From the NCBI GenBank assembly GCA_033764955.1, contig JANRIL010000001.1, positions 1 to 64,000 on the forward strand: DNA of 64,000 nt, in the 5' to 3' direction. A program made the position numbers and the translations under genes. This document shows, piece after piece, positions 3,151 through 24,672 of this stretch (within the stretch, counting starts at the first letter, position 1; each line of letters opens with the position of its first letter). The DNA is from Cyanobacteriota bacterium (GTDB lineage: Bacteria; Cyanobacteriota; Cyanobacteriia; Thermostichales; Thermostichaceae). The notes under the pieces are model-generated. The model was not told where the DNA came from. It saw only the letters and a list, made by a program, of their open reading frames with translations, and made no database searches.

Positions 3151-3192
3151 GGGATGGGATCCTTCTCTGGCTGCGACGAGGCTCAACACCCC
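3151..3192 (-). ncRNA. conserved leader hairpin motif, copy A
   Basis: GGGGTGTTGAGCCTC-N10-GAGAAGGATCCCATCCC, 7 nt downstream of box 1. Confidence 0.55.
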
Positions 3193-3199
3193 TAGACCG

Positions 3200-3233
3200 A
3201 ATCTACGACAAGTCGATCGACTTACCGTACTTG
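3200..3233. promoter_or_regulatory. palindromic sulfur-cluster box 1
   Basis: AATC TACG ACAAGTCGATCGACTTAC CGTA CTTG. Confidence 0.75.
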
Positions 3234-3379
3234 ATTGTTTTTGTCATCTCATAGGTTGATGTATAAAGCCAGAAAATCAATTAATTTTAGGAGCATTTTT
3301 TTGGGTTTGTTGTTAAGCCTTTAATCCACCGATATCTTCTGATTTTAGTTTGGAGTAAACCGATCATTTCGAGAGGGGA

Positions 3380-4246
3380 TCACTGTAGCTTAAACCCTAA
3401 ATTTGATAACGCCTCTCGCAATCGATGGCGACCTGAAAGGGATTCGGATCCAGCCACTCGTTTTAGGGAATGCTCTGTCCAATCGCCAGGGATCTCCATC
3501 TGCTGGGTGGTGTAAAAATCGTTCATGATTTGGTTGTACTGATCGACAAGCTGTTGCTGCGGCTCCAGTTGATAGGTTTCACGGTGCAGCACAACGCCTT
3601 GGGGTAATCGGGGCTTAATCGCAGGCAGCGAGTCGGGATCCGGGTAGCCGATACATAGCCCAAACACCGGAAACACTTTGGTTGGCAACGCCAACTCAGC
3701 GGCAACAGCTTCTGGCTGATCTCGTAAGGCACCGATATAGACCGATCCCAAACCCAGCGATTCGGCTGCAATCACAGCATTCTGAGCTGCAAGAGCTGCA
3801 TCGACAACCGCCATCACAAACATTTCCAAATAATCCAGCGCCTCGTAGGGGAGATCTCGCTGATCGCCTAGCTGAGAGAGTCGGGCGAGATCTGCCAGCC
3901 AAACTAGAAACAAGGGGCATTGTCGAATATGGGCTTGTCCTCGTGCTAGATCGGCAAGTCTGGCTTTTTTACTTGCATCCTCGACTGCAACCACGCTCCA
4001 AGTTTGTAGATTAGAAGAGGTTGCAGCCGATTGAGCCGCCGCCATCAGTAGCTCTAAAGTGCCTGTGGGTAACGGATCCAGTCGGTAGGTGCGGATCGAG
4101 CGATGGGTGAGAAGAGTGCTTAAGCTTTCATTCCAACTGACCGATAGAGGATCCGGGTCGGATCCAGCGGTTCCATAACGGTTCTGAAATAGGTTCGTCC
4201 AACGCTCAAGACTAGCGATCATGATGGTTTCCCCACTTTGGGTCAC
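3380..4246 (-). CDS. NfsA/Frp-type nitroreductase-family NADPH:flavin oxidoreductase
   Basis: HRSIR, AAQSAATSSNLQTWSVVAV, AESLGLGSVYIG, KPRLP motifs. Confidence 0.9.
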   Translation of the reverse strand: MTQSGETIMIASLERWTNLFQNRYGTAGSDPDPLSVSWNESLSTLLTHRSIRTYRLDPLPTGTLELLMAAAQSAATSSNLQTWSVVAVEDASKKARLADLARGQAHIRQCPLFLVWLADLARLSQLGDQRDLPYEALDYLEMFVMAVVDAALAAQNAVIAAESLGLGSVYIGALRDQPEAVAAELALPTKVFPVFGLCIGYPDPDSLPAIKPRLPQGVVLHRETYQLEPQQQLVDQYNQIMNDFYTTQQMEIPGDWTEHSLKRVAGSESLSGRHRLREALSNLGFKLQ

Positions 4247-5037
4247 TCTAGTAAATCAGGCTGCTCTCGCACGATCTTGTCATAAAGGGGTTGGAAGCTA
4301 TACCAGCCCCCTTGAGAGGATCCGCCAGTTTTGCGCGCAGTATTCGGATCGATCTCGATAGGTTTGCCCAAGGATTCCGCCAAGATTTGGGTTCGACAGG
4401 CATCTTCCATCGTGATAAACCACCAAGCAGCTTCATCCACCGAATGCCCGACGGTGAGTAGGCCATGATTGCGCAAAATGATCGCTTTATGGTCTGCTAG
4501 GGCTTGGGCGATACGCTGTCCTTCCGAGGTGTCGAGAACGATCCCGGTATAGTCATCGAAAATGCTGTGATCTTCAAAAAAGGCGCAGGCATCTTGGGTC
4601 AACGGATCCAATAAGCGGCCTGTCGTAGACCACACTTTGCCATAGGGGGAATGAGAGTGCGCCGCCGCGATGATGTCAGGTCGAGCCGCATGAAGTTGAG
4701 AGTGAATGGCAAACGCTGCCTGATTAACCGGTCGATTCCCTTGGACGATCTCGCCACGATGGTTGACCAACAGCAGATCGCAAACGTGGATGTGTCCGAA
4801 GTAGACCGCTAGCGGATTCACCCAGAAATGGTCGAGCAGTTCCGGATCCCTGACCGTAATATGTCCAGCTAGACCGTAATCAAAGCCGTAATGGGCAAAC
4901 AAGCGCAGGGCTGCTGCTAGCCGTTGCTTCCGATATAAGCGTTCTTGATCGATCTGCTCGAATACAGGAGGGCTAGGCCAAGCAAATGATTCTGGAATCA
5001 ACGATTGCGAAATAGCCGGGGGGAGAGTTTGAGGCAT
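4243..5037 (-). CDS. class II aldolase/adducin family protein
   Basis: GHITVRDP, IHSQLHAARPD..AAAHSHS, ILRNHGLLTVG metal-binding His motifs. Confidence 0.9.
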   Translation of the reverse strand: MPQTLPPAISQSLIPESFAWPSPPVFEQIDQERLYRKQRLAAALRLFAHYGFDYGLAGHITVRDPELLDHFWVNPLAVYFGHIHVCDLLLVNHRGEIVQGNRPVNQAAFAIHSQLHAARPDIIAAAHSHSPYGKVWSTTGRLLDPLTQDACAFFEDHSIFDDYTGIVLDTSEGQRIAQALADHKAIILRNHGLLTVGHSVDEAAWWFITMEDACRTQILAESLGKPIEIDPNTARKTGGSSQGGWYSFQPLYDKIVREQPDLLE

Positions 5038-5081
5038 GAGGCAAGGATCCTTTGCTTGGGAGGGTTCTGGAGTGGTAGCGT

Positions 5082-6182
5082 TCAGGCGACGGCAACCGAT
5101 TGTCGATCACGGCGGGCAACTTCAGCTCGCACCAAGGGAATTAGATCGCGTCCATAGTCGATGGCATCTTGTAAGGGTTCAAAGCCTCGGATCAAGATCG
5201 TCTTTACCCCCACTTCGTAGTAACTGAGCAGAGATTCTGCCACCTGTTCGGGAGTACCCACGAGACAAGTGCTGTTCCCTCCGGCTCCAGTTGCCGCCGC
5301 AATGGCTGTCCAGAGTCGCTGATCATGAATCTCTCCGTCCGCTGCAAACTTGAGTAATCGTTGCGCTCCCACAGCTTGGGGTTGGACAGTCGCCAGCCGT
5401 TGACCACCCCGCAAAGCCACGATCCGCTCCAGAAAGTCGTGTGCCCTTGCCCATGCTTGCGTTTCCGTTGCCCCCAAAATCGGTCGCAGAGAGACGCTGA
5501 ACTCAGGAAAACGCCCATAAGGTAATGCAGCTGCTCGAACTTCGGTAATCCGCTCCCGAATTGCGGCAACAGGTTCTCCAAAGAGCATGAAAACATCCGC
5601 GTGTTTGGCACCGACTTGAATGGCTGGCTCCGAGGATCCGCCAAAGTAAAGGGGAATATGAGGCTGCTGGAAGGGTTTAACCTCAGAAAATGCTTGTTTG
5701 ACCCGATAAAACTGCCCCTCGTAGTCAAACGGATCTGGACTAGTCCAGGTCTTACGGACGATATCGAGATATTCATCGGTACGCTGGTAGCGAGCATCTT
5801 TTTCTGTCCAGTCACCATCCCTCTGTTGATCCGCGTCGCTGCCGCCCGTGATCGTGTGAACCGCGATTCGACCTTGGGTGAAGTGATCGAGGGTTGCTGC
5901 TGTCCGTGCTGCTAAGGTAGGAGCGACAAATCCGGGACGATGGGCAACCAAAAAATTCAGCTTTTCGGTGTGGGCTGCGGCATAACTGGCGATCCCAAAG
6001 CCATCGGGACTGCCAGCCGAATAGCCGATCAACACCCGGTCGAAGTCTCCTTGGTCGTGGGCGCGGGCGATATCTCGCAAAAACGCTTTATCAATCGGGT
6101 GATTGGCAGGTTCAAAAAAATTTCCACCTGATAGCTCAGTAGCAGGACGGGTGCTGATCAATCCAATGAAGTGAATCGGCAT
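5082..6182 (-). CDS. luciferase-like (LLM) flavin-dependent monooxygenase, SsuD-related
   Basis: AHRPGFVAPTLAAR.AATLD, LYFGGSSE, LVGTPEQVAE. Confidence 0.9.
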   Translation of the reverse strand: MPIHFIGLISTRPATELSGGNFFEPANHPIDKAFLRDIARAHDQGDFDRVLIGYSAGSPDGFGIASYAAAHTEKLNFLVAHRPGFVAPTLAARTAATLDHFTQGRIAVHTITGGSDADQQRDGDWTEKDARYQRTDEYLDIVRKTWTSPDPFDYEGQFYRVKQAFSEVKPFQQPHIPLYFGGSSEPAIQVGAKHADVFMLFGEPVAAIRERITEVRAAALPYGRFPEFSVSLRPILGATETQAWARAHDFLERIVALRGGQRLATVQPQAVGAQRLLKFAADGEIHDQRLWTAIAAATGAGGNSTCLVGTPEQVAESLLSYYEVGVKTILIRGFEPLQDAIDYGRDLIPLVRAEVARRDRQSVAVA

Positions 6183-6254
6183 CGTGGTCTCCTTCGGATC
6201 CGGTGTGATGGGGATAACTGTTCGATGGTTGAAGTAAAGATCTCAGCTACAGAT

Positions 6255-7352
6255 CTAGGCCACTGCCAATTGGCGTTCACGGCGAGCAACTTCCGAGCGA
6301 ACCAACGGGATCAGGTCGCGCCCATAATCGATGGCATCTTGCACCGGATCAAAGCCGCGAATTAACAGAGTGGTCGCTCCCGCCTCGTAATAGTCCACTA
6401 GCGATTCCGCCACTTGTTCGGGGGTGCCAACCAGAGCCGTCGTATTGCCATAGGCACCTGTAGCTGCTGCAATCGGAGTCCAAAGGCGCTTGTCATGAAT
6501 TTCTGCTTGGGCGGCAAAATCCAATAACCGTTGAGATCCGACCGATTGCGGTTGCACCGACTCCCGGATCCGTTTCCCCCCTCGGATATCTACAACTCGC
6601 TCCAAAATGGACTGAGCACGTTCCCAAGCTTTGGCCTCTGTGGATCCGAGAATGGGACGTAAAGAAACACTGAAGCGAGGTATGCGACCAAATGTATGAG
6701 CAATGTTCCGCACTTCGGCAATCCGTTCTTTCACAGCGGCAACTGGCTCTCCCCAGAGGGCATAGACATCGCTATGTTTGGCTCCGACCTCCACCGCGAT
6801 TCCTGAGGCTCCACCAAAATAAAGAGGAATCCCCGGATCCTGGAGGGGCTTTGCCTCTGAGAAAGCATCTTTGACCTGATAAAACTCACCCTCAAAATCA
6901 AAAGGGAGTACACTCGTCCAGACGCGGCGCAGGATTTCTAAATACTCATCAGTGCGGCGATAACGGGCATCATGATCTAGCCAATCTCCATCTCGTTGCT
7001 GCTCAGTGTCATTGCCACCTGTAATGATGTGGAGCGCGATCCGGCCTTCGCTGAAGTGATCTAGAGTTACGGCTTTACGAGCAGCCAATGTGGGAGCAAC
7101 AAATCCGGGGCGATGAGCGATTAAAAAGTTCAGCGTTTCCGTCACCGAAGCCGCATAAGAAGCCACACTAAACCCATCCGGCCCATTCGAGCCATAGCCA
7201 ATCAAAACTCGGTCAAAACCGCTCTTTTCATGGGTTTGGGCAAAGTGACGAACGAAATCTGGATCTACAGATCCGCCGGTGAGAGACACAGTGGATCCAT
7301 CCAATTCTGAGGCGTGGCAGGTGCCGATCATTCCCACAAATTCTACTGGCAT
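6255..7352 (-). CDS. LLM flavin-dependent monooxygenase, tandem paralog
   Basis: Same motifs as 5082-6182 with long identical blocks. Confidence 0.9.
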   Translation of the reverse strand: MPVEFVGMIGTCHASELDGSTVSLTGGSVDPDFVRHFAQTHEKSGFDRVLIGYGSNGPDGFSVASYAASVTETLNFLIAHRPGFVAPTLAARKAVTLDHFSEGRIALHIITGGNDTEQQRDGDWLDHDARYRRTDEYLEILRRVWTSVLPFDFEGEFYQVKDAFSEAKPLQDPGIPLYFGGASGIAVEVGAKHSDVYALWGEPVAAVKERIAEVRNIAHTFGRIPRFSVSLRPILGSTEAKAWERAQSILERVVDIRGGKRIRESVQPQSVGSQRLLDFAAQAEIHDKRLWTPIAAATGAYGNTTALVGTPEQVAESLVDYYEAGATTLLIRGFDPVQDAIDYGRDLIPLVRSEVARRERQLAVA

Positions 7353-7441
7353 GGGCTTTCTCCAATGAAGATAGCAAGATCAAACTAAGCAGGTAGCAAC
7401 GGTTCACCTGAAAAAGTAATCGACATTCCCAGTCTCTGGCA

Positions 7442-8521
7442 TCAGTTCGAAGCCTTGATCGAGGGGCAAATCGTGGAAGCAACATCTAGCTTTTTAGGCA
7501 AAATTTTGTTCTCTAGCATCCAATCCGCATTGGTTTGGATCCGAGCGATATCCTCAGCACTTGGCTTGACTAAATTGCCCGCATAAGTTCCCCGCAGATC
7601 GATCACTTTCTTCGCCACTACTGGCGATATTTTGAGCTGTTTGACCATGTAGTCGGCGGTTTTATCAGGATTTTGGAACATCCAAGTGGTTTCTTGATCC
7701 AACCCATTCAGAGCTGCTTCTACGGCTTGAGGAGCCTGAGTTGCCTTGTCCCGCCCAACAACCATCACACTATAGGTTAAGGGAGGTAGATCGACTGGGA
7801 TCCGTTGGGCTCCATGTTCTAATTCAGCAATCGTGTTGTATGGTTCCCACACTGCCCAGGCATCAACCTGTCCGTTAACCAATGCAGGCAGAGCATCGGG
7901 GGGAGCAATATTGAGTCGCTCAACTTTATCTTTGGGGACATTATTCACCTCTAGAGCTTTCAGCAGCAGCCATTCCCCTGCCCCACCAGTGTTGATCGCG
8001 ACTTTTTTCCCTACTAAATCAGCAATGGATTTGATGGGGGAATCTTTCGCCACCAGAATAACTTGGGTATTTCTCCGGCGTTTGTCATCAGGATCCGGCG
8101 GAATGACACGACCAATGCACAGAGGTTGTCCGGCAGCTAAGGCTGAAATGGTAGGAATGTCACCGCAGCCACCGATATCGGCATTATTGGTGATGATGGC
8201 CTGAAGTAAGGAAGCACATCGATCAAAAGGACCAGACCATTCAACTTTGATGTTTTTGGCTGCCAGTAATTTATCTAGTTCGCCCCGTTCTTGCGCAACC
8301 GGAAAAACTCCGCCGCCGCGTTGGTACCCTAATTTGATTGTTTGAGGCGATGAAGTTGTTTGAGCAGAAGTTTGGATCCCAGCGGAAACAACACCAACTA
8401 GGGCGGTGGCTAGCAGAGTTGCTACTAAATTGGCTTTTGGGGGATGAGCTTTTGATCCCCAGAGCTGTTGAGTAGTTATTCGTTTCATTTGTTTACTCTG
8501 AAATAGTGGACAAACAATCAT
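7442..8521 (-). CDS. SsuA-type aliphatic sulfonate-binding protein
   Basis: IKLGYQ, SPIKSIADLVGKKVA, VDAWAVWEPY; start uncertain. Confidence 0.85.
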   Translation of the reverse strand: MIVCPLFQSKQMKRITTQQLWGSKAHPPKANLVATLLATALVGVVSAGIQTSAQTTSSPQTIKLGYQRGGGVFPVAQERGELDKLLAAKNIKVEWSGPFDRCASLLQAIITNNADIGGCGDIPTISALAAGQPLCIGRVIPPDPDDKRRRNTQVILVAKDSPIKSIADLVGKKVAINTGGAGEWLLLKALEVNNVPKDKVERLNIAPPDALPALVNGQVDAWAVWEPYNTIAELEHGAQRIPVDLPPLTYSVMVVGRDKATQAPQAVEAALNGLDQETTWMFQNPDKTADYMVKQLKISPVVAKKVIDLRGTYAGNLVKPSAEDIARIQTNADWMLENKILPKKLDVASTICPSIKASN

Positions 8522-8785
8522 CTAACTATCGAAAGTTCTCAACTTGCCACAACTTGAAAGCAAGTGAGGATATTCATCTTCTTCCTCAATCAAGATCGGA
8601 ACCAAATGAACTCCCATCGCAGCTTTCAGTAAGAACCGAATCACCAATGTGAGTATGATAGTAGGGATCCAAATCCCCCAAAGAAAACCAAGCAACTGAA
8701 ATTGGATAATCGACTGAGGTTCATGAACAGATCCATCTAGATTAACTGGATCCAGTGGATTCAAAGGATGAAGGAAGGTGAGCAT
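8522..8785 (-). CDS. small single-TM hypothetical protein
   Basis: 87 aa, hydrophobic segment LLGFLWGIWIPTIILTLVIRFLL; abuts the SBP ORF. Confidence 0.4.
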   Translation of the reverse strand: MLTFLHPLNPLDPVNLDGSVHEPQSIIQFQLLGFLWGIWIPTIILTLVIRFLLKAAMGVHLVPILIEEEDEYPHLLSSCGKLRTFDS

Positions 8786-9018
8786 AAATTAAACCTGAAT
8801 GAAGAAACATCGGATCCGAGTATCTGTCGCAGAAAACTTTAGAAGATGCGCGTGGCTGAGTGACAACCAAACGGTCGCCGATAGCCGCTTTTAGAAAATG
8901 AATTTACTCAACCCTGGTGCTAGACAAAGCCGATGCCTAACCAAGATAGGTAACGATGAATCCAAAAACTTCTTCTCCCAAACCATGCTTCAGTACCTTC
9001 TCTCGGTGACTGTGATCT

Positions 9019-9055
9019 GGGATGGATCCTTCTCAACGTAGAGGCCCAATCGCCC
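9019..9055 (-). ncRNA. conserved leader hairpin motif, copy B
   Basis: GGGCGATTGGGCCTC-TACGTT-GAGAAGGATCCATCCC. Confidence 0.55.
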
Positions 9056-9150
9056 TGTGAAAAAATCAAAAATACTGTGAGTCCGTCAAATCATTGGCTA
9101 GACTGACCTGCGAGATCGATAAGCTCTATTAACTGAATCGTAAGTTGCTT

Positions 9151-9184
9151 AATCTACGATATGTTGATCAAGATACTGTATTTT
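9151..9184. promoter_or_regulatory. palindromic box 2
   Basis: AATC TACG ATATGTTGATCAAGATAC TGTA TTTT. Confidence 0.75.
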
Positions 9185-9229
9185 GATTGATTTTCAGTAA
9201 AGCACAGGATCCTAAAATGTGCAAGCGAG

Positions 9230-9943
9230 TCAACCCACAATCTGCGGATCCTTTTCTAGGCAGGGAGCATTCGAGTAGCCAGAACGAAATGAGCGCACAG
9301 TCTGAGCTTCGGGATTGAATTGATGTCGCCAAACGCAGCCCGTATCATTGCCCAACAAGTGAATGGAAACGGAGGCTTCGGGTGATGTAGTTTTGACGGC
9401 ATGAATATCTCCCTTGGGCGGTAGCAGTCCGTAGAGATCGCCGGGTCGTAACGACCTCACTTCCGCAACTTGCAAGTAGGCATGGCTCTCCGCTTGGTGC
9501 GAATGAAGAGTGGCCTGATCGTGATCATGAGACAGTGAAGGGGAAGTCTGCTCATCATCTTGGCGCTGATAAACGGTTTCTTCCTGATGCCCTTGATAAA
9601 GGCCAATCAGTCCCCAAGCCAGATGATCATGCACAGGAGTAGCGGATCCGGCAGGAACCACCAAGCTAAACAAGGTTAGGGATCGATCGGCTGAGCGATA
9701 GATCAACCATTGCCCAATCCCGCCACCCATCCCACTAGCCGGATTTGGGGCTAGAAATGGATCCGGTAACCAACCCGATCGAGCGAGCAATTCCTGAAAC
9801 GGTGGCTCCAGAGCTGCTAACAATCCGACATAATTTCCTTCAAAACGGCTACGAGCTGCCTGAACGGTGGCGACAAACTGGTGTAGCAGCGGGTGATCGA
9901 TAAACCATTGATCCTCAGCTAGAGGTTCGAGTACATCAGTCAT
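9230..9943 (-). CDS. cysteine/thiol dioxygenase family cupin
   Basis: TPVHDHLAWG and GDIHAV 3-His iron site, SVSIH. Confidence 0.85.
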   Translation of the reverse strand: MTDVLEPLAEDQWFIDHPLLHQFVATVQAARSRFEGNYVGLLAALEPPFQELLARSGWLPDPFLAPNPASGMGGGIGQWLIYRSADRSLTLFSLVVPAGSATPVHDHLAWGLIGLYQGHQEETVYQRQDDEQTSPSLSHDHDQATLHSHQAESHAYLQVAEVRSLRPGDLYGLLPPKGDIHAVKTTSPEASVSIHLLGNDTGCVWRHQFNPEAQTVRSFRSGYSNAPCLEKDPQIVG

Positions 9944-10015
9944 GAAGATCCTCCTAACACTGTGAAAAAATGTGGAAAGCAGACAAAAAGCTCTATGGGT
10001 CGTGGTCTAAGCTCT

Positions 10016-10049
10016 AAACCACGGTAAGTCTATCGGAATGCCGTGTTTA
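10016..10049. promoter_or_regulatory. palindromic box 3
   Basis: AAAC CACG GTAAGTCTATCGGAATGC CGTG TTTA. Confidence 0.7.
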
Positions 10050-10126
10050 TCAAGGTGGGTTTAGCTTGCCACAGATCGGAAGTCAGAGCAAGCCTAATCA
10101 TTTGTGTGCTAACATTGTCAAATCAA

Positions 10127-10160
10127 AAACTACGCATTGTCGATGTGCTTGTCGTAGATT
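10127..10160. promoter_or_regulatory. palindromic box 4
   Basis: AAAC TACG CATTGTCGATGTGCTTGT CGTA GATT. Confidence 0.7.
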
Positions 10161-10168
10161 AAAATTTC

Positions 10169-10205
10169 GGGCGATTGGAACTCTAGCTGAGAAGTGCTCC
10201 ATCCC
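10169..10205 (+). ncRNA. conserved leader hairpin motif, copy C
   Basis: GGGCGATTGGAACTC-TAGCT-GAGAAGTGCTCCATCCC, 8 nt after box 4. Confidence 0.55.
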
Positions 10206-10247
10206 ATTCTGACTAAAGATCTCAACGATTCAGAACGGAGGATAGAG

Positions 10248-12471: not shown

Positions 12472-12505
12472 TAACCTTACAATCCCAATCGACATACCGT
12501 AGATT
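12472..12505. promoter_or_regulatory. palindromic box 5 (left half degenerate)
   Basis: TAAC CTTA CAATCCCAATCGACATAC CGTA GATT. Confidence 0.6.
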
Positions 12506-12512: not shown

Positions 12513-12546
12513 GGGTTGTTGGATCTCCTACAGAAGAATCCATCCC
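12513..12546 (+). ncRNA. conserved leader hairpin motif, copy D
   Basis: GGGTTGTTGGATCTC-CTAC-AGAAGAATCCATCCC, 7 nt after box 5. Confidence 0.55.
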
Positions 12547-12923
12547 AACTGTTGTCAAAGTCTCTGACAGGAAGGATTTTGGGCGTTTTGTAGAATTTGT
12601 TGATCTCAAATCAGTACTGGTAAATTTTTGATCTGAAGACATTTATTCTTTACTGAGTAGATGCTTAGAAACATTCAGAATATCCCTAGCTATCTAGATA
12701 GGAAATCTTGACTATGGAATCGAAACCACAGCTTGATAATTCTGTTGATCTCCACGGAGATGTTTTTGGATTAGGGGTGGTCACTAGCCAGGTTTCAGGG
12801 AAAGTGGATCCAATGATTAATCTGCTCCCCCATCCTTTGCTGGATTTTTGGCTAAGTCTACTGCCTCATGAGAGTTCTAGCTTGAGAGGCGTTCAGTATT
12901 TACGAGATGGGTGAGGGTTCTCG

Positions 12924-15158: not shown

Positions 15159-15983
15159 ATGATTGCTACCTTAGCGCCTGTTTGGAATACTGAATTTGAG
15201 AAGAAAACACTCGATCGCCTAATCGATCAGCACGCCCCTCATTTTCCCAAGTCCCGTCAAGGGGCAGTCCGAAAACCGATCACGGCTGAAGAAACCGACC
15301 GCTTCTACACCTATTGGGCAGGCACGGCGGCTTTAGATTTATTTATCATCCAAGCTTGCGCCAAAGGCATTGGGCTGATCGATGACCTTGAATTTCAGAT
15401 TTTTTTGACCCGTCAAATCGGGGATGATGGCGCTCATGCCCAAGCTTATCGAGAACGGATCCAAGCAGTTACGGGTCGGGATCCGATTGAGGACATGCAG
15501 CGAGAAGCCAAACGGCAGTGGGACTTAATGGGAGATCTGCCCTATCGTAACTGGCTGGGGTTCATCACCTTTGAGATCCACTACGAGCTACATGTAGTAC
15601 CTACGATGGTTTTGAACAGTCGCCTTGCCACCATTGGGGATCCGGAGCTATCCCATCAAGGGGCAGATCGCTTTTTGCCAGATGAGGCGCTTCACCGAGA
15701 GGGCGTGGCAGCCTGGTGGCGGAAGCGCTATCGCCAAGCCTCTGTCCATGAAAAGTCCGAACTGCGCGAACAACTGCTAGCTCTCGAAGAAGAAGGACAG
15801 CAACTTCGCCAGGAAGAGTTATGGCAACGTTGGCGGGATGTTCGCCTAGCCAGTGGCCTGAACAATACGGGCATTGAAAAGATCTATGATGGCTGGCGCT
15901 CAGAGGTGATTCGTTATTTATTTGATCGCTCCGTTCCCGATCTGTCTCTGGTTAGTGACTGGTCAACCTGGGGGGAGCCATGA
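15159..15983 (+). CDS. ferritin-like diiron protein
   Basis: QIGDDGAH ... EIHYE ... DEALH carboxylate/His pattern. Confidence 0.7.
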   Translation: MIATLAPVWNTEFEKKTLDRLIDQHAPHFPKSRQGAVRKPITAEETDRFYTYWAGTAALDLFIIQACAKGIGLIDDLEFQIFLTRQIGDDGAHAQAYRERIQAVTGRDPIEDMQREAKRQWDLMGDLPYRNWLGFITFEIHYELHVVPTMVLNSRLATIGDPELSHQGADRFLPDEALHREGVAAWWRKRYRQASVHEKSELREQLLALEEEGQQLRQEELWQRWRDVRLASGLNNTGIEKIYDGWRSEVIRYLFDRSVPDLSLVSDWSTWGEP

Positions 15984-16951: not shown

Positions 16952-16994
16952 GTTAAATCTGTAGCCTTTGAGAGAAAATTCTGTAGGAATGATC

Positions 16995-17669
16995 ATGCCA
17001 ACCTTAGAACTGTATAGTGCCGTCGTTTGTCCTTATGCTCATCGCACCCGCTTAGTGTTGCTCGAAAAAAAGATCCCCTTTGACCTACATGAGATCGATT
17101 TACAGAATAAGCCCCCTCACTTTCATGAGATCTCTCCCTACGGCAAAGTACCAGCGATCAAACAGGGCGAGGAGCGAGTTTGGGAGTCAGCCATCATCAA
17201 TGAATATCTAGATGAAGTCTTCCCGGATCCACCGCTTCTACCTACCGATCCCCTAAAAAAAGCCCAGGCTCGAATCTGGATCGATTTTGCCAATACGCGA
17301 TTTGTGCCAGCATTCTCCCAGTTATTGCGTAGCCAGGATCCAGAGGCTCAAGCACTAGCGGCTCAAGAACTCACTAACCACCTTTTGTTTATCGAGAAAG
17401 AAGGGCTGAGCAAGCTTTCTGAGCAAGGGCCATACTGGTTCGGATCCGAATTGAGCTTGGTTGATCTCACGTTTTATCCCTGGTTCGAACGCTGGCCTGC
17501 CTTAACCTATTATCGAGACTTTTACATTCCAGAAGAACTTAGCCAACTGCATCTCTGGTGGCAGGCATTGAGTCAGCGGCAATCCATCCAATCCATTGCA
17601 AATCCTCAAGACTATTACATCGAACGATATGCCAGGTTTGCTAATCCTTTACCTACTTCAAGTCACTGA
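16995..17669 (+). CDS. glutathione S-transferase, Cys-type (omega-like CPYA)
   Basis: [25 protein letters not shown]. Confidence 0.9.
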   Translation: MPTLELYSAVVCPYAHRTRLVLLEKKIPFDLHEIDLQNKPPHFHEISPYGKVPAIKQGEERVWESAIINEYLDEVFPDPPLLPTDPLKKAQARIWIDFANTRFVPAFSQLLRSQDPEAQALAAQELTNHLLFIEKEGLSKLSEQGPYWFGSELSLVDLTFYPWFERWPALTYYRDFYIPEELSQLHLWWQALSQRQSIQSIANPQDYYIERYARFANPLPTSSH

Positions 17670-17686
17670 TCATTTTAGGATTGAGC

Positions 17687-18862
17687 ATGACCTACATCCG
17701 CAAAAAGAAAACATCCGCCAAAGCTGACCAATTTACAGAATCAGTGATTCGTGAAATGACACGAGTTGCCCTACGCTATGGTGCCATCAACCTTGCCCAG
17801 GGATTTCCTGACTTTCCCTGCCCTCTCGAACTTAAGCAAGCTGCGTGCGAAGCGATCAATGCTGATATCAATCAATATGCCATCACCTGGGGAGATCGCC
17901 CCTTTCGCCAAGCCATTGCTGAAAAGGTGAGTTGGTATTTGGGGCTAACCGTGGATCCGGAAACTCAAATTACCGTCACCTGTGGATCGACAGAGGCAAT
18001 GGCAGCAACCATGCTTGCCACCGTGGATCCGGGAGATGAAGTCATTATTTTTGAACCCTACTACGAAAACTATGGCCCTGATGTTATTTTGGCAAACGCA
18101 ACTCCTCGCTATATCTCCTTACATCCACCTGATTGGACGTTTGATGAGCAAGAGTTACGGCAAGCGTTTAATCATTCCACGAAAGCGATCATTATCAATA
18201 CACCACATAACCCAACTGGCAAAGTTTTTAATCGATCCGAACTTACCCTCATCTCAGAACTTTGCCAACAATGGGATGTCTTAGCTTTTACCGATGAAAT
18301 TTATGAACATATTCTCTATGACGATGCTAAGCATCTAGCATTAGCCACCTTTCCGGGGATGGAAGATCGAACGATTACGATTAATGGCCTTTCAAAAACT
18401 TATAGTGTGACTGGTTGGCGAGTTGGTTATATCCTAGCCAGCCCACAACTAACCGGATCCATTCGCAAAGTCCATGACTTTCTCACTGTCGGATCCCCAG
18501 CGCCACTACAAAGAGCAGGAGTAACAGCTCTCCAATTTCCTATTTCTTATTACGACAATTTATCCCATCTTTATCAAGAAAAAAGAGATTTTATTTTACA
18601 AGCTCTTGATCAAGTTGGCATCTCCTATTTTGTTCCCCAGGGAGCCTATTATGTCTTTGCAGATATCTCTGATTTTGGCTATTCCAGCGATATCGAGTTT
18701 GCCCATCACTTGATCAAAGATATCGGGGTAGCCGTGGTTCCCGGATCCAGCTTCTTCGCGGATCCACTTCAACATCAACAATTCGTCCGTTTTTGTTTTA
18801 GCAAAACTCTCCAAACTCTGGATGCAGCAAAAGAAAGGTTAATTCAAAATCTGAAAAGTTAG
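17687..18862 (+). CDS. PLP class I/II aminotransferase (YbdL/glutamine transaminase K-like)
   Basis: INLAQGFPDF, NTPHNPTGK, DEIYE, SKTYSVTGWRVG. Confidence 0.9.
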   Translation: MTYIRKKKTSAKADQFTESVIREMTRVALRYGAINLAQGFPDFPCPLELKQAACEAINADINQYAITWGDRPFRQAIAEKVSWYLGLTVDPETQITVTCGSTEAMAATMLATVDPGDEVIIFEPYYENYGPDVILANATPRYISLHPPDWTFDEQELRQAFNHSTKAIIINTPHNPTGKVFNRSELTLISELCQQWDVLAFTDEIYEHILYDDAKHLALATFPGMEDRTITINGLSKTYSVTGWRVGYILASPQLTGSIRKVHDFLTVGSPAPLQRAGVTALQFPISYYDNLSHLYQEKRDFILQALDQVGISYFVPQGAYYVFADISDFGYSSDIEFAHHLIKDIGVAVVPGSSFFADPLQHQQFVRFCFSKTLQTLDAAKERLIQNLKS

Positions 18863-18870
18863 GAGCAACC

Positions 18871-19386
18871 ATGCTGAAGGTGATTACAGTAGCTTGGCTA
18901 CTGTTGTTTCTGGGTGATTTTCTCTCAACCTTTTGTTATCACATTCCGCAGCATGTCTTTGGTAAGTTACACCTTCAAGTACACCACTCGCCTCGCCAGC
19001 ACTATTGGCATTATGCAGTCATTTCAACGGATCCCAATGTATTACTAGATGGAATCTTAGGCGCACTTCCCTACCTATTTCTGGCTTTGCCGCTGGGATT
19101 TTTATCTCTTGGCGGAGTTGTTTTGGGTCTAGCGCTTGGACAGTTTCATGTCTGGTGGCGACACACGACAGCCTTACAGTGGCAAACTCCACAATTGATT
19201 GGGGTTCTCTGCCGATTTCTATCGATTACAACTCCCGAACTTCATTGGGAACATCATCGAAATACGACTCGTGGCTATGGCGATATTTTTACTATTTTCG
19301 ATAAGCCGGGTCGAGTATGGCTGCGACAACTTAGACGATGGCGATATCGATTGAAGGCTTCTCTGGCTTTAGTGACCAGAATCTAA
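18871..19386 (+). CDS. sterol desaturase/fatty acid hydroxylase family membrane protein
   Basis: His boxes YHIPQH, HLQVHH, HVWWRH, HWEHH. Confidence 0.75.
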   Translation: MLKVITVAWLLLFLGDFLSTFCYHIPQHVFGKLHLQVHHSPRQHYWHYAVISTDPNVLLDGILGALPYLFLALPLGFLSLGGVVLGLALGQFHVWWRHTTALQWQTPQLIGVLCRFLSITTPELHWEHHRNTTRGYGDIFTIFDKPGRVWLRQLRRWRYRLKASLALVTRI

Positions 19387-19394
19387 GACGGAGG

Positions 19395-19802
19395 CTAGAG
19401 ATGGTTTAGGAGTTCTGTGGGGGAGTATGTGGGGAGTTTGCTACCGATGAAGTCTTTCTGATCGCGGGTGACGATCCTATCAAGTTGATTGAGGCTCGCG
19501 CAGGCAAGTTGGATGCTGTCTTCAACGTCTTTCAGGCCGAGGCGAAGAGCCGTTTCGACTATCTGGCTATCAACAGCACAAAATCGGAGGCCGATTAGTA
19601 GCCGATTAATGGCAGCAAGGGCGACTTCACGACCTTCAGTTTTACGGATGATGTAGAAAAAATTGGTGATGGTGGTTGCGGCGATATAACCTTCCAAATT
19701 GCCTCATTCGATTTGCTCGAAAAAGGCAATCGCGGTATTGACAAAGGGATCCCGTTCTAGGAGCAGATCGAGAACGACATTGGTATCGACGAGAACTTTC
19801 AT
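19395..19802 (-). pseudogene. PIN-domain (VapC-like) toxin with in-frame stop
   Basis: MKVLVDTNVVLDLLLERDPF...FEQIE*GNLEGYIAATT...DVEDSIQ; TGA at 19704-19706 (codon 33). Confidence 0.85.
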
Positions 19803-19810
19803 GGGAAAGC

Positions 19811-20047
19811 TTACTGGTATTTCTGGGTCAAATAGTCTGTGTAGTCTGCTTGAAGGTCATCATCGCTAAAGTCTAGTCCGTGACGTTTGGCGATGCCCCG
19901 GAGTCCGGTGAGGGTGCCGGGGATAGCTGTAGATTGAAGGGCAGTGAGTTGTTTTTGGTTAAGAAATTCGGCGAAGTTGAGGACTTCGTTGATTTGGTTT
20001 TCTAGGAGGGCTTGGATAAGCTGGTAGAGCCTTTCGACGGCTGTCAT
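19811..20047 (-). CDS. DUF2281-type antitoxin
   Basis: MTAVERLYQLIQAL...EVLNFAEFL, C-term DYL..KY; directly upstream of PIN gene. Confidence 0.7.
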   Translation of the reverse strand: MTAVERLYQLIQALLENQINEVLNFAEFLNQKQLTALQSTAIPGTLTGLRGIAKRHGLDFSDDDLQADYTDYLTQKYQ

Positions 20048-20166
20048 GATGGTTAAACTCTCACTGCTAATCTCCTCATATTGAGGGTGATGAAGCAAGT
20101 TAAAATCTACTCTGTTTAGCAAATTCAAGGATAGACGCTGATCAAAATCCTGGGAATGAAGGACTT

Positions 20167-21495
20167 ATGAGCGGATCAAAACAATTAAAACTGGGTGCAT
20201 TCATGCGTCCTGTCAGCATCCATACGGGAGCATGGCGTTATCCGGGGGCGTTGCCTGATGCCAATTTCAACTTCCCAGCGATCAAACGATTTATCAAAAA
20301 ACTAGAGCAGGGAAAGTTTGACGCTTTTTTTATGGCTGATCACTTGGCGCTGCTAAATATGCCCATCGATGCTCTCAAACGCAGCCACACTGTTACCTCA
20401 TTCGAGCCATTTACTCTGCTCTCCGCTCTTGCTAGTGTCACTAACCATATCGGACTGATGGCGACAGCTTCGACTACCTATGATGAGCCATATCACATTG
20501 CTCGTCGCTTTGCCTCGCTCGACCATATCAGTGGCGGACGCGCTGGCTGGAATATTGTCACTACTTCTAATCCAGATGCAGCCCGCAACTTCGGCTTAGA
20601 AGAGGACTTAGAGCATGACGAACGCTACGTGCGAGCTCGTGAATTCTATGATGTCGTCACAGGACTATGGGATTCCTTCGCTGACGACGCATTCATTCGT
20701 GATCGCGAATCCGGAATTTATTTTGATCCGGCAAGAGTTCACGTTTTAGATCATCAGGGTAAGCATCTCTCGGTGCGGGGTCCCTTAAACATCGCCAGAC
20801 CGATCCAAGGGTGGCCAGTGATCATTCAGGCTGGAGCCTCCGAAGCAGGGCGGCAATTGGCTGCCGAAACCGCTGAAGTCGTCTTTGCTCCTGCCACTAA
20901 TCTGGAAGCAGGCAAAGCACTCTTTGCCGATATTAAAAGTCGAGCGCAAAAGATCGGGCGTGCCCCTGAAACGATCAAAATTCTGCCAGGTGTTTTGGTG
21001 ATCGTGGGTGAAACGGTTGAAGCAGCACTAGCTAAGCGTGAACAGTTAGATAAGCTCGTGCATTATGACAGCGGCATCGGTAGCCTCAATAGCGCCCTCG
21101 GCTATGATGTTTCAGGATTTGATCCCGATGGCCCATTGCCGGAAATCCCTCAGACGAATGCCAGCCAGAGCGGACGAGAACGGATAATAACGATGGCACA
21201 ACGAGAAAACCTAACCATTCGACAACTGGCTCAACGGATCGGTAGCTATGGCGGGCTTGCCTTCGTGGGCACTCCTCAAACGATTGCCGATGAGATGGAG
21301 CGATGGTTAATCGAAGAAGGATCCGATGGATTCAACATCATGTTCCCTTTTCTCCCCGAAGGCCTGGATGATTTTGTGGACAACGTGATTCCAGAACTCC
21401 AGCGACGTGGGATCTTTCGTCAGGAATATGAGGGCAAGACACTGCGGGAGAATCTTGGCCTTGCTCGACCAGCCAACCGCTTTTTTGAAGCCTAA
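20167..21495 (+). CDS. NtaA/DszA/DmoA-family LLM monooxygenase
   Basis: FDAFFMADH, ARRFASLDHISGGRAGWNIVT, QAGASEAGR, YEGKTLRENLGL. Confidence 0.92.
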   Translation: MSGSKQLKLGAFMRPVSIHTGAWRYPGALPDANFNFPAIKRFIKKLEQGKFDAFFMADHLALLNMPIDALKRSHTVTSFEPFTLLSALASVTNHIGLMATASTTYDEPYHIARRFASLDHISGGRAGWNIVTTSNPDAARNFGLEEDLEHDERYVRAREFYDVVTGLWDSFADDAFIRDRESGIYFDPARVHVLDHQGKHLSVRGPLNIARPIQGWPVIIQAGASEAGRQLAAETAEVVFAPATNLEAGKALFADIKSRAQKIGRAPETIKILPGVLVIVGETVEAALAKREQLDKLVHYDSGIGSLNSALGYDVSGFDPDGPLPEIPQTNASQSGRERIITMAQRENLTIRQLAQRIGSYGGLAFVGTPQTIADEMERWLIEEGSDGFNIMFPFLPEGLDDFVDNVIPELQRRGIFRQEYEGKTLRENLGLARPANRFFEA

Positions 21496-21519
21496 TTTAG
21501 GATGAATTTTTCCCTGGAC

Positions 21520-21876
21520 TTATCTGGACTTTTTCATTTGTGCTCCACGGGCAAACATTTCTCCCATCTGGTGGTGGAGATTTTTATGATTAGGGTGGTT
21601 AGACCATTCGTCCCAGCCGGAGTTACGTCGAAATTCTCCTAATCTGCCTGATGCAGTGATCTCAGCTTCATTAACTCCACTCGAATGTTCACAGTCTGGA
21701 GATACATAAAGAGCATCAGCCTGACAATAAAGTTCACACATATTGCAGGTTTGACAATCACTTTGCCGAGCAATCACTGGGGACCCATTGATGACCGGAT
21801 CGAAAACATTGGTGGGACAAACCTGAACGCAGAGGTTGCACTGAGTACAACGGCTATCGATCACAAGCTCAATCAT
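21520..21876 (-). CDS. 2x[4Fe-4S] ferredoxin (AsfB/AprB-like)
   Basis: CTQCNLCVQVCP and CQTCNMCELYC. Confidence 0.9.
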   Translation of the reverse strand: MIELVIDSRCTQCNLCVQVCPTNVFDPVINGSPVIARQSDCQTCNMCELYCQADALYVSPDCEHSSGVNEAEITASGRLGEFRRNSGWDEWSNHPNHKNLHHQMGEMFARGAQMKKSR

Positions 21877-23468
21877 TATGCCGCCTCGCTAGCAATAGAT
21901 TCTGGTTCGGATCCTTCATCCAGTTGTGTCCATACTTGATCCAACCCACCCACCAAGAGGCGATGGGTAAAACGCGGATCCGGCATAGGTGCATCATCAC
22001 GGATATGCATTCCCCGACTCTCTTGTCGAGTGAAGGCGGCGGTATAACACCATCTGGCAGTGGCGACTAAGGCAGCACTTTCTCGTGCTTTGATCAGGTC
22101 AACTCCTTCTGCATAAAGGTGATTTCTCACGTCCTGCCAGAGGGCATCGAGTCGGGTGAGGGATCCCCTTAGTCCTACACCGGATCGAAAAATATTTTTG
22201 TCGAAAGGTTCCATTTCTTGTTGTACCCCAGCAATAATGGCACGAGTGTCTAAGGCCATGACTGAATGGGCAGGATGGATCCCGGCTTTCCCGATTGCAA
22301 TGCCTTCCTCGTGAACTCGGCGACCGGATCCTCTCACCAACCTGGCTGCCCCTCGTCCAGCAAAATAGCCAGAAGTCAACGCCCAGGCTGAGTTTTGGGC
22401 ACCGCCACCGGAAATAGCACCCGCTATCAATTCACGGGTAGCAGCGTCACCTACGGCAAACAGACCCGGCACACTCGTCTGGCAATTCTCATCGATAATC
22501 CGGATCCCTCCGGATCCGCGTACTGTTCCTTCCCCCCGCAACGTCACCTCGAATTTGTCAGTAAAAGGGTCGATGCCTTGACGAGCAAAGGACAACAGTA
22601 CCGCTGGCTGAATTTGCGACAACCGATCTCGGAGATCTTGAGGCATTCTTGCTAGGTTGCAAAATACACGTCCGGCTAAGAGTGCTTTCGCCAAGGAGCG
22701 ATTTCCGTCGCCCCAATCAATGTCAAGTTCGGCACCATCACTATCAAAGTAAGTGGCAAAAACATAAGAGGCCGAGCGGGTTTGAGTCGAGTAGATGGGC
22801 GCGACCGTATAGTAATTGGAAAATTCCATGCCCGAAAGCTCTGCCCCAGCCTCCACAGCCATCAAGTACCCATCACCCGTATTCGTTTGGCTACCTAGCA
22901 ACCTTGACATAAACGCACAGCCCCCGGTCGCTAAGATAACGGCTCCAGCTCGGACACACCAGGAACCTCCTCCCGCCTGCCGTCGGATCCCTCTCGCTCC
23001 TGCTACGGATCCATCTCGATGTAACAACAATTCCAAAGCCGGACTGTGATCGAGGATCCGAACTCCTAAATCCTCTGCCATTTGGCGTAAGGCGCGTAAA
23101 TACTCTGGGCCTCGTAGCGCCCGATACTGGGTGATCCCTTGATCATCCACAGGAAATGGGTAGTAGCTCGCCAACGTGGGCAGAATGCGCCAAGTGGTAT
23201 CCAAAACCCTTGCCATCCAGCCAGGATCCGCTAGTCCACCACTCCGAGAGGATTGGACTCGGATCGCCTCATCCCGGTGATCGGGATCTACCCACCAATG
23301 TCCTGGCCCTGCTGTTGCCGTTACTCCACTCGTGCCACAGTAGCCTTTATCTACCAGAACGACCGATGCCCCCTGTTGCGCTGCCGCTATCGCTGACCAA
23401 GCACCAGAAAGACCTCCGCCAATGACCAGCACATCCGCCTCGATATCCAGATTGATCGGGATAACCAT
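21876..23468 (-). CDS. FAD-binding SdhA/FrdA/AprA-family oxidoreductase (AsfA-like)
   Basis: DVLVIGGG, VILATGG, NTGDG, GLFAVGD, RQESRGMH; coupled to ferredoxin. Confidence 0.85.
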   Translation of the reverse strand: MVIPINLDIEADVLVIGGGLSGAWSAIAAAQQGASVVLVDKGYCGTSGVTATAGPGHWWVDPDHRDEAIRVQSSRSGGLADPGWMARVLDTTWRILPTLASYYPFPVDDQGITQYRALRGPEYLRALRQMAEDLGVRILDHSPALELLLHRDGSVAGARGIRRQAGGGSWCVRAGAVILATGGCAFMSRLLGSQTNTGDGYLMAVEAGAELSGMEFSNYYTVAPIYSTQTRSASYVFATYFDSDGAELDIDWGDGNRSLAKALLAGRVFCNLARMPQDLRDRLSQIQPAVLLSFARQGIDPFTDKFEVTLRGEGTVRGSGGIRIIDENCQTSVPGLFAVGDAATRELIAGAISGGGAQNSAWALTSGYFAGRGAARLVRGSGRRVHEEGIAIGKAGIHPAHSVMALDTRAIIAGVQQEMEPFDKNIFRSGVGLRGSLTRLDALWQDVRNHLYAEGVDLIKARESAALVATARWCYTAAFTRQESRGMHIRDDAPMPDPRFTHRLLVGGLDQVWTQLDEGSEPESIASEAA

Positions 23469-23659
23469 AAGAAAACTCTTGGATGATTGGGTTGAATTCG
23501 CTAAATACTGATTAGGCTTTGCTTGCTTATTTGAGGATCAATCGCTCTCAATGCGTGAATCGCCTCAGGAAGTAAGCCGCTGATTCGACCGTCTCAAAAA
23601 GCTTGAGATTGGGTCATGTGTCATGAATTAAGCTCAACTATACTCTTTATTGCAAATTA

Positions 23660-23693
23660 AATCTACTGTATCTTGGTCGATTTACTGTAGATT
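23660..23693. promoter_or_regulatory. palindromic box 6
   Basis: AATC TACT GTATCTTGGTCGATTTAC TGTA GATT. Confidence 0.75.
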
Positions 23694-23768
23694 AAGGTAT
23701 CTCCGCTCTTCCGGCACATCAGCTGATGAGTGCAATCACAAGTGATCTCTGATGCCGATAGTAGCCAT

Positions 23769-24458
23769 TTAGAACCGCTCTACCCAAGGCCGCAATTCTA
23801 CTTCCCAAGTCCAGGCACTTCGGGGTTGACGCAAAATCGCCAGATAGGTCTGGGCAATCGCATCCGGATCTAGGTAACTATCTGGCTGATCGGGCGGATC
23901 CTGACGGGTTGCCGAGCGGATCCCACCATCGATCACAAAATGAGCCACATGGATATTTCGAGGAGCCAACTCCCGTGCGATACTTTGAGCTAATCCCCGG
24001 AGGGCAAACTTACCCATCGCAAATGGAGCCGACTGGGGATAGCCTTTGACGCTGGCAGAAGCGCCCGTAAAGAAAATAGCTCCTTCGCCCAATACTAATT
24101 GTCGTTTGGCAGCAGCTTGCGCGACTAAAAACCCCCCATAGGCAGTGATTTCGAGGGTTTTGGATACTTCTAGTGGATCGAGATCAACCAAAGCTCCTCG
24201 CACTCGCCAGCTGGGATTGTAGATCACGACCAATGGAGCGCCCAAGGCTTGCTCGACCTGCGCGAAAAGGTGATTAACCTCGTCTGGCTGACTGGCATCA
24301 CAGGCAAAACTAACGGATCCGATTGTTTTGACTAACCCCCGCAGTTTCTCGATGTTGCGAGCTGCCAATGCAACCTTAAATCCTTCTGCTGCCAATAATC
24401 GAGCCAAAGAAGCACTTAATCCATCGCCTGCTCCTACAATCAATGCAATCGGTGGCAT
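23769..24458 (-). CDS. short-chain dehydrogenase/reductase (atypical)
   Basis: GAGDGLS, FTGASAS, FAMGK (YxxxK altered), HVAHFVIDG. Confidence 0.88.
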   Translation of the reverse strand: MPPIALIVGAGDGLSASLARLLAAEGFKVALAARNIEKLRGLVKTIGSVSFACDASQPDEVNHLFAQVEQALGAPLVVIYNPSWRVRGALVDLDPLEVSKTLEITAYGGFLVAQAAAKRQLVLGEGAIFFTGASASVKGYPQSAPFAMGKFALRGLAQSIARELAPRNIHVAHFVIDGGIRSATRQDPPDQPDSYLDPDAIAQTYLAILRQPRSAWTWEVELRPWVERF

Positions 24459-24593
24459 ACATCTACTTCCTAAGGAAAAACGAACAGCGTTTTATAACTT
24501 CCGTGACACAAACACCATTTCTCTCAGTGGAATCTGTTGGGATTGGGCTTGTATTTTCTCGCTTGATGTGTCAACTTAGTATCTATTCAAGCA

Positions 24594-24627
24594 TAAGAAC
24601 GATATTCCGATTGGATTACCGTGCATT
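24594..24627. promoter_or_regulatory. palindromic box 7
   Basis: TAAG AACG ATATTCCGATTGGATTAC CGTG CATT. Confidence 0.65.
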
Positions 24628-24635
24628 AAGGTTTA

Positions 24636-24672
24636 AGGCGCTTGGATTCCGCTCTGATAAGGGATCCATCCT
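24636..24672 (+). ncRNA. conserved leader hairpin motif, copy E
   Basis: AGGCGCTTGGATTCC-GCTCT-GATAAGGGATCCATCCT, 8 nt after box 7. Confidence 0.5.

Follow-up and report, generated by a model that had tools for sequence, protein, structure and literature searches.

The stretch of DNA analysed here (the window) comprises positions 1-64,000 of contig JANRIL010000001.1 in the assembly GCA_033764955.1 of a Cyanobacteriota bacterium (Thermostichales; Thermostichaceae). It contains five copies (A-E) of a bulged hairpin sequence, and three more (F-H) are located on other contigs of the same genome (G000). Genes for a phycobilisome protein and a cyanophycinase-like protein confirm the organism as a cyanobacterium. 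The motif is 34-42 nt long and lies downstream of a palindromic box in the leaders of eight operons. It is a putative new leader stem-loop regulon signal, which belongs to none of the families to which it was compared and is confined to one genome. The best explanation, held tentatively and judged to fall somewhat short of probable, is that the motif is a lineage-specific recognition site in the RNA leader, read by a trans-acting factor that would control the fate of the transcript.

All eight copies are intergenic and positioned sense-upstream of organosulfur-acquisition operons with genes of the SsuA, SsuD, SfnB, SfnG, TauD, or GST type. Furthermore, all six SsuA-like genes identified in the genome by tblastn are located downstream of a copy of the motif on the same strand. 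A motif family with a conserved orientation and a link to sulfur-acquisition genes had been proposed in an earlier note on this DNA, and the eight copies bear this out. The contrary case considered there, a dispersed repeat unlinked to sulfur genes, is not supported, and neither is a miniature inverted-repeat transposable element, given the intergenic, sense-upstream position of every copy before an organosulfur operon. Between the motif and the start codon there are 34-377 nt, depending on the copy. The copies and the genes downstream of them are as follows, with scores from the covariance model described below (R1):

Copy A, 3151..3192, minus strand: 42 nt, with the longest loop; 37.7 bits; 150 nt from an SsuA-like binding-protein gene (open reading frame (ORF) listed as 2002-3015, true ATG at ~2999).
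Copy B, 9019..9055, minus strand: 48.6 bits; operon from 8785 down to 3380 on the minus strand, encoding an 87-aa membrane protein, an SsuA-like protein, two SsuD-like monooxygenases, a class II aldolase, and a nitroreductase.
Copy C, 10169..10205, plus strand: 48.1 bits; 43 nt from a gene for an SfnB/acyl-CoA-dehydrogenase-like flavoprotein, followed by a 2-hydroxyacid dehydrogenase gene.
Copy D, 12513..12546, plus strand: 34 nt; 44.9 bits; 377 nt from an SfnG-like monooxygenase gene, followed by SsuA-like, GST, and aminotransferase genes.
Copy E, 24636..24672, plus strand: first helix AGG/CCU; 48.9 bits; 211 nt from GST, CmcJ-family oxidoreductase, and TauD genes.
Copy F, contig C1:21996-22030, minus strand: R1 site; two SsuA genes and SsuD downstream.
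Copy G, contig C18:12564-12599, minus strand: R1 site; FAD oxidoreductase, ferredoxin, and SsuA-like genes downstream.
Copy H, contig C18:8583-8618, minus strand: weak R1 site; SsuA, permease, and ATPase genes downstream.

Identification of the motif copies

The five copies claimed in the window were all confirmed, with their coordinates and strands. A degenerate two-arm pattern matches exactly five sites in the window, where 0.85 are expected, and none of 100 shuffled sequences reaches five. A loose regular expression run over the 3.8-Mb genome revealed two further convincing copies on other contigs. Covariance modelling had been suggested as a check, and the model R1, built from seven copies, identifies eight sites in the genome, three of them (F, G, and H) additional to those of the window. 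Seven sites score 37.7-48.9 bits (E 1.7e-9 to 2.2e-6). The weakest, copy H, scores 25.6 bits (E 0.005), which is no better than the top chance matches of a forced-pattern scan (25.5 bits). Copy H was accepted because it has a box upstream and an SsuA gene downstream, and differs from copy D at only three positions. The opinion that the motif is not a coding peptide is supported.

Fold and covariation of the motif

The fold obtained from RNAalifold and a register-aware pairing table consists of three short helices, P1, P2, and P3. P1 (RGG/CCY) is followed by an internal loop of four nucleotides (NNNU) on one side and one (U) on the other. P2 (UGGR/YCCA) continues into a 3' bulge of 0-2 nt, and P3 (NCU/AGN) carries a terminal loop of 8-15 nt, the first base of which is always C and the end mostly GA. 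The consensus is 5'-RGG NNNU UGGR NCU C..loop..GA AGN (0-2 nt) YCCA U CCY-3'. The pairing drawn previously, GGG/CCC, TGG(A)/(T)CCA, and CTC/GAG, was partly wrong: CTC/GAG is present in five of the eight copies and never varies, and NCU/AGN is better supported. Two bases of the AAG that had been described as unpaired are paired in P3.

Compensatory substitutions, as expected of a structured cis-regulatory RNA, are found among the eight paralogues of this one genome. In the alignment fitted to the model, 93.8% of the 80 cells pair, and four pairs contain double changes; in controls with slid partners only 35-73% of the cells pair. The covariation score is 0.314 compared to 0.211 in shuffles, and two of 500 shuffles reach 0.314, although related sequences can outscore such shuffles without any structure, as the tool itself warns. 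The covariation check proposed earlier thus found some compensatory changes, at P1.1, P2.4, and P3.1. P1.1 is G:C in six copies and A:U in two (E and H). P3.1 is C:G in four copies, U:A in three, and A:U in one. P2.4 is A:U in four copies, G:U in two, G:C in one, and A·G in one. The three differences between copies H and D are at fixed positions, and H has A:U, like E, where D has G:C. Because H is nearest to D and yet carries the A:U pair of E, at least two compensatory events are indicated at P1.1. The 12-nt spacer of the box, the spacer between the -10 hexamer and the motif, three bases of the internal loop, and the terminal loop have changed to saturation, whereas the arms have been preserved, which indicates that the arms are under selection and not conserved by recent copying.

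Several observations weigh against reading the motif as an RNA structure. In addition to the warning about shuffles, the covariation is drawn wholly from eight paralogous copies of one genome. If a bulge of 0-2 nt is allowed, 78 of the 80 cells pair, in a table in which the register of the bulge was chosen for each copy, inflating the pairing of P3. The z-scores of single sequences against dinucleotide shuffles are -1.51, -0.01, 0.67, -0.15, -0.89, 0.70, and 0.29 for copies A-G, and the summed folding energy of the antisense strand (-75.0 kcal/mol) is as good as that of the sense strand (-72.1 kcal/mol). The conservation of the arms is largely one of base identity, beyond what pairing demands, and would also suit a site on DNA. 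The word GGATCC, which contributes to the 3' arm of copies A, B, and E, is found 12 times as often as expected across the genome and may add spurious similarity. Lastly, the distances of copies F, H, and B from the -10 hexamer (31, ~16, and 13 nt) indicate that the motif is not always 5'-terminal. The hairpin energies are weak, -6 to -14 kcal/mol. The thermodynamic stability of the hairpin is unexceptional (z -1.5 to +0.7).

GGATCC occurs 11709 times in the genome (12x expectation), and GGGATCCC occurs 4915 times (75x). Together they represent a HIP-like iterated palindrome of a sequence different from HIP1, and the classical HIP1 sequence GCGATCGC is present at only 1.7x the expected frequency.

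The palindromic box and the -10 hexamer

The box upstream of the motif is an imperfect 24-bp palindrome, ACGGTA-N12-TACCGT, in which the last T is the first base of a -10-like TAnnnT hexamer. The boxes proximal to the motif align as ACGNTANT-YCGAT-N8-CGTAGATT. The earlier description of the box as palindromic is correct in the form ACGGTA-N12-TACCGT only, and several copies are degenerate. The boxes associated with the motif in the window are:

3200..3228, minus strand: box of copy A; palindrome 3205-3228 with two substitutions; TAGATT 3200-3205; 7-nt spacer.
9069..9097, minus strand: proximal box of copy B; degenerate, ends in AGTATTTT; 13 nt before the motif.
9151..9179, minus strand: canonical box farther upstream of copy B (distal); palindrome 9156-9179 with two substitutions; flanked by TAGATT (minus side) and TATTTT (plus side).
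10132..10160, plus strand: box of copy C; left half degenerate; TAGATT 10155-10160; 8-nt spacer.
12477..12505, plus strand: box of copy D; left half degenerate; TAGATT 12500-12505; 7-nt spacer.
24599..24627, plus strand: box of copy E; palindrome 24599-24622 with one substitution, followed by TGCATT; 8-nt spacer.

The spacer between the -10 hexamer and the motif measures 7, 8, 7, 8, and 9 nt in five copies, 13 nt in B, ~16 nt in H, and 31 nt in F. The earlier statement that four copies start 7-8 nt after the box is thus revised to 7-9 nt after the -10 hexamer in five copies, with longer spacers in B, H, and F. Likewise, the motif is predicted to be the first structure of the transcript in five of the eight copies, directly after a -10-like TAGATT, and lies farther downstream in the other three. 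A sigma-70 scan did not call the TAGATT promoters because their -35 regions are poor. The spacer of copy F (C1:22031-22061, 31 nt) contains two more TAGATT-like words (TAGGAT and TAGGATT) and a GGATGG complementary to the 3' arm of the motif, which may reflect a duplication or an alternative pairing.

Exact matches to CGTAGATT had given the impression that every box is paired with a motif, which was overturned by a palindrome scan. At least four box promoters of the genome lack the motif, as do boxes in other cyanobacteria, so the proposed coupling of the two elements is not obligatory. The R1 search of the genome found no motif at these four palindromes:

10021..10044: one substitution; 78 nt upstream of the cupin/CDO-like gene 9230-9943 (minus strand).
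23665..23688: two substitutions; TAGATT on both sides; upstream of an FAD-oxidoreductase paralogue, 21876-23468 (minus strand).
Contig C45:169743-169766: directly upstream of genes for an SBP_bac_11 protein and two permeases (sbpA-cysTW-like).
Contig C13:4346-4369: next to a gene for a TOBE-domain ABC ATPase (cysA-like).

Because the box promoters without the motif head the sbpA-cysTW-like and cysA-like genes and two genes of the island in the window, the motif marks a subset of the box regulon.

The motif is found in a single genome

The motif was not recognised as a known riboswitch in the earlier note, and this agrees with the comparison to Rfam 15 (4227 models). At gathering thresholds no family matches the motif anywhere in the window, the sole match being a tRNA. 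With E-values up to 10, the eight loci yield six weak matches, none at the site of the motif.

R1 has no match in 150 relatives, searched with strict filters and 40 candidates scored per genome. Pattern searches of 30 genomes of the order and 400 genomes of the phylum returned nothing convincing; three look-alikes from the order were examined, and none has the box or a promoter context. No motif was detected by R1 at 24 loci with SsuA orthologues, where the best score is 13.2 bits; most of these orthologues are internal genes of operons, preceded by an ABC ATPase gene. Matches of 19-24 bits in the five genomes whose SsuA is closest were rejected, as they are located in a coding region, the leader of an rbp gene, and an unrelated spacer. 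Among genome contigs, 80 of at least 119 stretches matching a pattern that itself fixes 18 bases scored at most 25.5 bits with R1, which is chance-like. A box-plus-motif pattern gave two matches in metagenome contigs, both GC-rich, coding-looking, and without an R1 match. The motif is thus found in one genome only among the genomes and metagenomes searched.

Among 29 further genomes searched in the order, no orthologue of SsuA was found; a search of 400 others of the class found orthologues in 61, at identities of up to 71%. Because of this distribution, the organosulfur genes were probably gained by this lineage, and the motif would then have arisen or spread within it.

The box in other cyanobacteria and a candidate regulator

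A 196-aa Crp/FNR-family regulator (P0004; HTH_Crp_2, E 2.5e-13) is encoded at C18:8724-9311 on the minus strand, between the operon of copy G and copy H (also indexed as locus L136:3222-3812). The nearest NCBIfam models are PtrA and NtcA, both under the cut-off. When 401 genomes of the class were sampled, counting G000, 224 were found to encode homologues of P0004. In nine genomes (G172, G135, G636, G148, G596, G669, G536, G711, and G638), a homologue with 37-48% identity is encoded ~1-8 kb from a homologue of SsuA.

The nine clusters, from seven genera (loci L189-L197, 138 kb), were surveyed for the box with up to three substitutions allowed. The palindrome occurs 35 times in putative intergenic DNA, which makes up only 28% of the total, and 21 times in ORFs, and it recurs in the ssu and sulfate-transport promoters of these nine cyanobacteria. 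In 25 of the 35 intergenic palindromes, the last T of one side or both is the start of a TAnnnT hexamer, which supports the assignment of the -10 hexamer across genomes; 12 have it on both sides, giving 37 of 70 sides in total. The box looks like a compact bidirectional promoter-operator. Its recurrence suggests a phylum-wide promoter-operator unit centred near -23.5, which would be a repressor-like position. The leaders that follow the box in these genomes are mostly unstructured: 5 of 34 folded with z <= -2, in a set that includes some spurious box matches inside ORFs. Two of these five are stable hairpins of unrelated sequence after box promoters of genome G172, located 6-8 nt past TAGATT (L189, C1 ~5559-5600 and 8958-9000; z -2.3 and -3.6).

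As expected of a Crp/FNR-family operator, the palindrome is positioned upstream of regulon genes, and a regulator of the family is encoded nearby. The box is probably bound by the Crp-family protein encoded beside copy H, which is a candidate CysR-like regulator. The half-sites of CRP operators are arranged as 5-N6-5 and those of NtcA as GTA-N8-TAC. The box resembles the operators of the Crp/FNR/NtcA family in that the palindrome adjoins a TAnnnT -10 hexamer and a Crp-family gene is part of the cluster, here and in the nine other cyanobacteria. However, its half-sites, 6-N12-6, are more widely spaced than those of CRP or NtcA sites, and its centre is near -23.5. The passages on CysR in PMC12016511 and PMC11420160 describe it as controlling sulfate-transport genes and the structure of its regulon as undefined; CysR is also treated in PMC3590769. 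A literature search found no description of this motif or this box.

Possible mode of action of the motif

We infer from sequence that the motif is transcribed, acts as RNA, and is bound by a factor. It would be a cis-acting RNA, a bulged three-helix stem-loop located 5'-terminally, or nearly so, in eight mRNAs for organosulfur acquisition. The spacers between the -35 and -10 elements of their promoters would be occupied by the palindromic sulfur-regulon operator ACGGTA-N12-TACCGT, to which the CysR-like regulator would likely bind. After initiation, the hairpin would be recognised most likely by an RNA-binding protein, or possibly by a small RNA (sRNA), and this factor would set the stability or processing of the transcript. 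The sulfonate and organosulfur operons may thus be under a second layer of control, which the sulfate-transporter genes of the same box regulon would lack. A trans-acting factor is suggested because the base identities of the helices are conserved and the distance to the start codon varies over 34-377 nt. Arms of specific sequence combined with a variable 3-nt bulge and a variable loop would best suit a bulged stem recognised by a protein. One attractive complementary site for an sRNA or anti-arm partner, C5:101443, was rejected since it is inside a 403-aa ORF.

A switch in the leader itself is disfavoured by what follows the motif. A terminator scan found none at any copy: the flanks after CCC start with purines, are not T-rich, and contain no U-tract, so an intrinsic terminator or attenuator was rejected. 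A second conserved element or pseudoknot partner was sought in the eight leaders and not found. Given the lack of a terminator, start codons at distances of 34-377 nt, and the lack of a second element common to the leaders, switches of the terminator type and switches that sequester the Shine-Dalgarno sequence are ruled out. What is left is a leader element recognised in trans or one that affects access to the 5' end.

The alternative with the most in its favour, although an unlikely one, is that a protein binds the DNA duplex at a second site, spanning +1 to +40, where an organosulfur-specific repressor would act as a roadblock or block promoter clearance. A DNA site would account for arms conserved in base identity beyond pairing and for the lack of thermodynamic excess and strand bias, and a position just downstream of the -10 hexamer is classic for repressors. 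On the other hand, loops of 8-15 nt make the distance between the arms, measured from TTGG to (T)CCA, vary over 20-28 nt, and a 3-nt insertion on one side renders the arms asymmetric. Variable spacing of this kind is typical of a hairpin, unlike a rigid dimer site on DNA, and an operator for a dimeric transcription factor was rejected on the grounds of spacing and asymmetry. Moreover, compensatory changes maintain pairing at three helix ends, the orientation is fixed in eight of eight copies, and the presence of four G:U cells versus one A:C cell among the pairs slightly favours the sense strand.

A hairpin that merely shields the 5' end of the mRNA from 5'-end-dependent RNases, with no factor involved, is rather less likely again. 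In five of the eight copies the motif begins 7-9 nt past the -10 hexamer, that is, at about +1, and the two hairpins of genome G172, unrelated in sequence, occupy the same place after box promoters. Nevertheless, passive protection needs only structure, yet the arms are conserved in sequence while neutral positions are saturated. The hairpin is weak, copy F would start at about +25, and most box promoters elsewhere have no hairpin.

It is improbable that the motif is an inherited promoter cassette, in which the box and leader were duplicated during expansion of the regulon and the similarity reflects ancestry with no separate function. Its restriction to one genome is consistent with such a history, and the lack of SsuA orthologues in the rest of the order suggests acquisition followed by expansion. 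However, the flanks and internal neutral positions have fully diverged and the arms have not, and pairs were kept through double changes.

The least probable explanation is a small riboswitch in which the hairpin directly binds a sulfur metabolite. Aptamers of similar size are known (preQ1-I, guanidine-II, and guanidine-III), and a leader position in a metabolic regulon would suit one, but no conserved pocket is apparent: three of the four bases of the 5' internal loop NNNU vary, the terminal loop is variable except for the C with which it starts and the GA with which it ends, and it is in the helices that conserved bases are found. Neither a terminator nor coupling to the Shine-Dalgarno sequence, which could serve as an expression platform, follows the motif, no pseudoknot partner or second motif is conserved in the leaders, and there is no Rfam match even in the E-value mode. 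The small sensor proposed earlier is therefore unlikely, because the internal loop is variable and there is no coupling to a terminator or start codon.

Other features of the window

The island includes two pairs of paralogues: the tandem SsuD-like monooxygenase genes (5096-5394 and 6266-6564, 71% DNA identity over 299 nt) and two GST genes (17184-17315 and 25073-25204, 74% over 132 nt), the proteins of which are 56% identical. The island proteins encoded at 9230-9943 (minus strand; 237 aa, cupin/CDO-like by eye) and 15159-15983 (plus strand; 274 aa) have no match in Pfam (E up to 0.001) or NCBIfam (E up to 0.01). The leader of the operon of copy D (12547-12923, 377 nt) contains a 66-codon ORF starting at +202 relative to the start of the motif, with no obvious Shine-Dalgarno sequence. 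At the left edge of the window, an HNH endonuclease gene (524-964, minus strand) is located beside small ORFs without a family match. The region 30026-35883 encodes a cI-like S24 repressor, a DUF3987 primase-like protein (982 aa), and a tyrosine integrase adjoining tRNA-Met (35811-35883), and has the appearance of an integrated element adjacent to the sulfonate cluster. An att repeat of the tRNA-Met was sought within positions 1-36200 and not found.

Comparison to known systems and significance

In the iron-responsive element/iron regulatory protein (IRE/IRP) system, one factor co-regulates a nutrient regulon through stem-loops repeated in leaders. In its mode of action the motif would come nearest to such hairpins or to leader stabilisers. 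It resembles the IRE hairpins in being a short bulged stem-loop with conserved bases that is repeated in the leaders of related mRNAs. It differs in that it has no sequence or family relation to them, is bacterial, belongs to one lineage, and has a variable distance to the start codon. The 5' stabiliser stem-loops of ompA and aprE are, like the motif in five of the eight copies, located within a few nucleotides of the (here predicted) +1. However, those stabilisers are independent of sequence, whereas the arms of the motif are conserved in sequence, and copy F is ~25 nt into its leader. The riboswitches and motifs SAM-I/II/V, SAM/SAH, sul1, and NMT1/xanthine share with the motif a leader position upstream of sulfur-related or NMT1/SsuA-family genes, but the motif matches none of the Rfam models.

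In Escherichia coli, Cbl/APS (APS, adenosine 5'-phosphosulfate) acts on top of CysB, so that the sulfonate genes ssu and tau receive control beyond that of the general sulfur regulator; the ssu operon of Bacillus subtilis is controlled by termination in its leader. Both systems add a layer of control on sulfonate genes, as the motif may do, and the box regulon described here includes sulfate-transporter genes without the motif. Cbl, however, is a DNA-binding protein of the LysR family, and the leader of B. subtilis uses a terminator, none of which follows the motif. A more speculative proposal, considered unlikely in its full form, is that the motif is an RNA "second operator". A private stem-loop, read by a protein, an sRNA, or a small ligand, would switch on organosulfur scavenging only without the preferred sulfur (sulfate or its activated form), atop a phylum-wide operator of the CysR type.

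The control of sulfur starvation in cyanobacteria is poorly defined. The locus yields a candidate operator, ACGGTA-N12-TACCGT, fused to the -10 hexamer and shared by promoters of ssu and sulfate-transport genes in nine other cyanobacteria, and, in the private leader hairpin, a feature by which the box regulon of a single genome falls into two classes. If the motif acts as DNA, it defines the site of a second regulator. If the hairpin acts as RNA, it would be an example of a post-transcriptional regulon signal that was born and propagated to eight operons, and could provide a compact, portable part for expression dependent on the sulfur source. If the proposal of a second operator is true, the motif would be an RNA counterpart of the control by Cbl and APS, and a regulon tag that arose and spread in a single genome.

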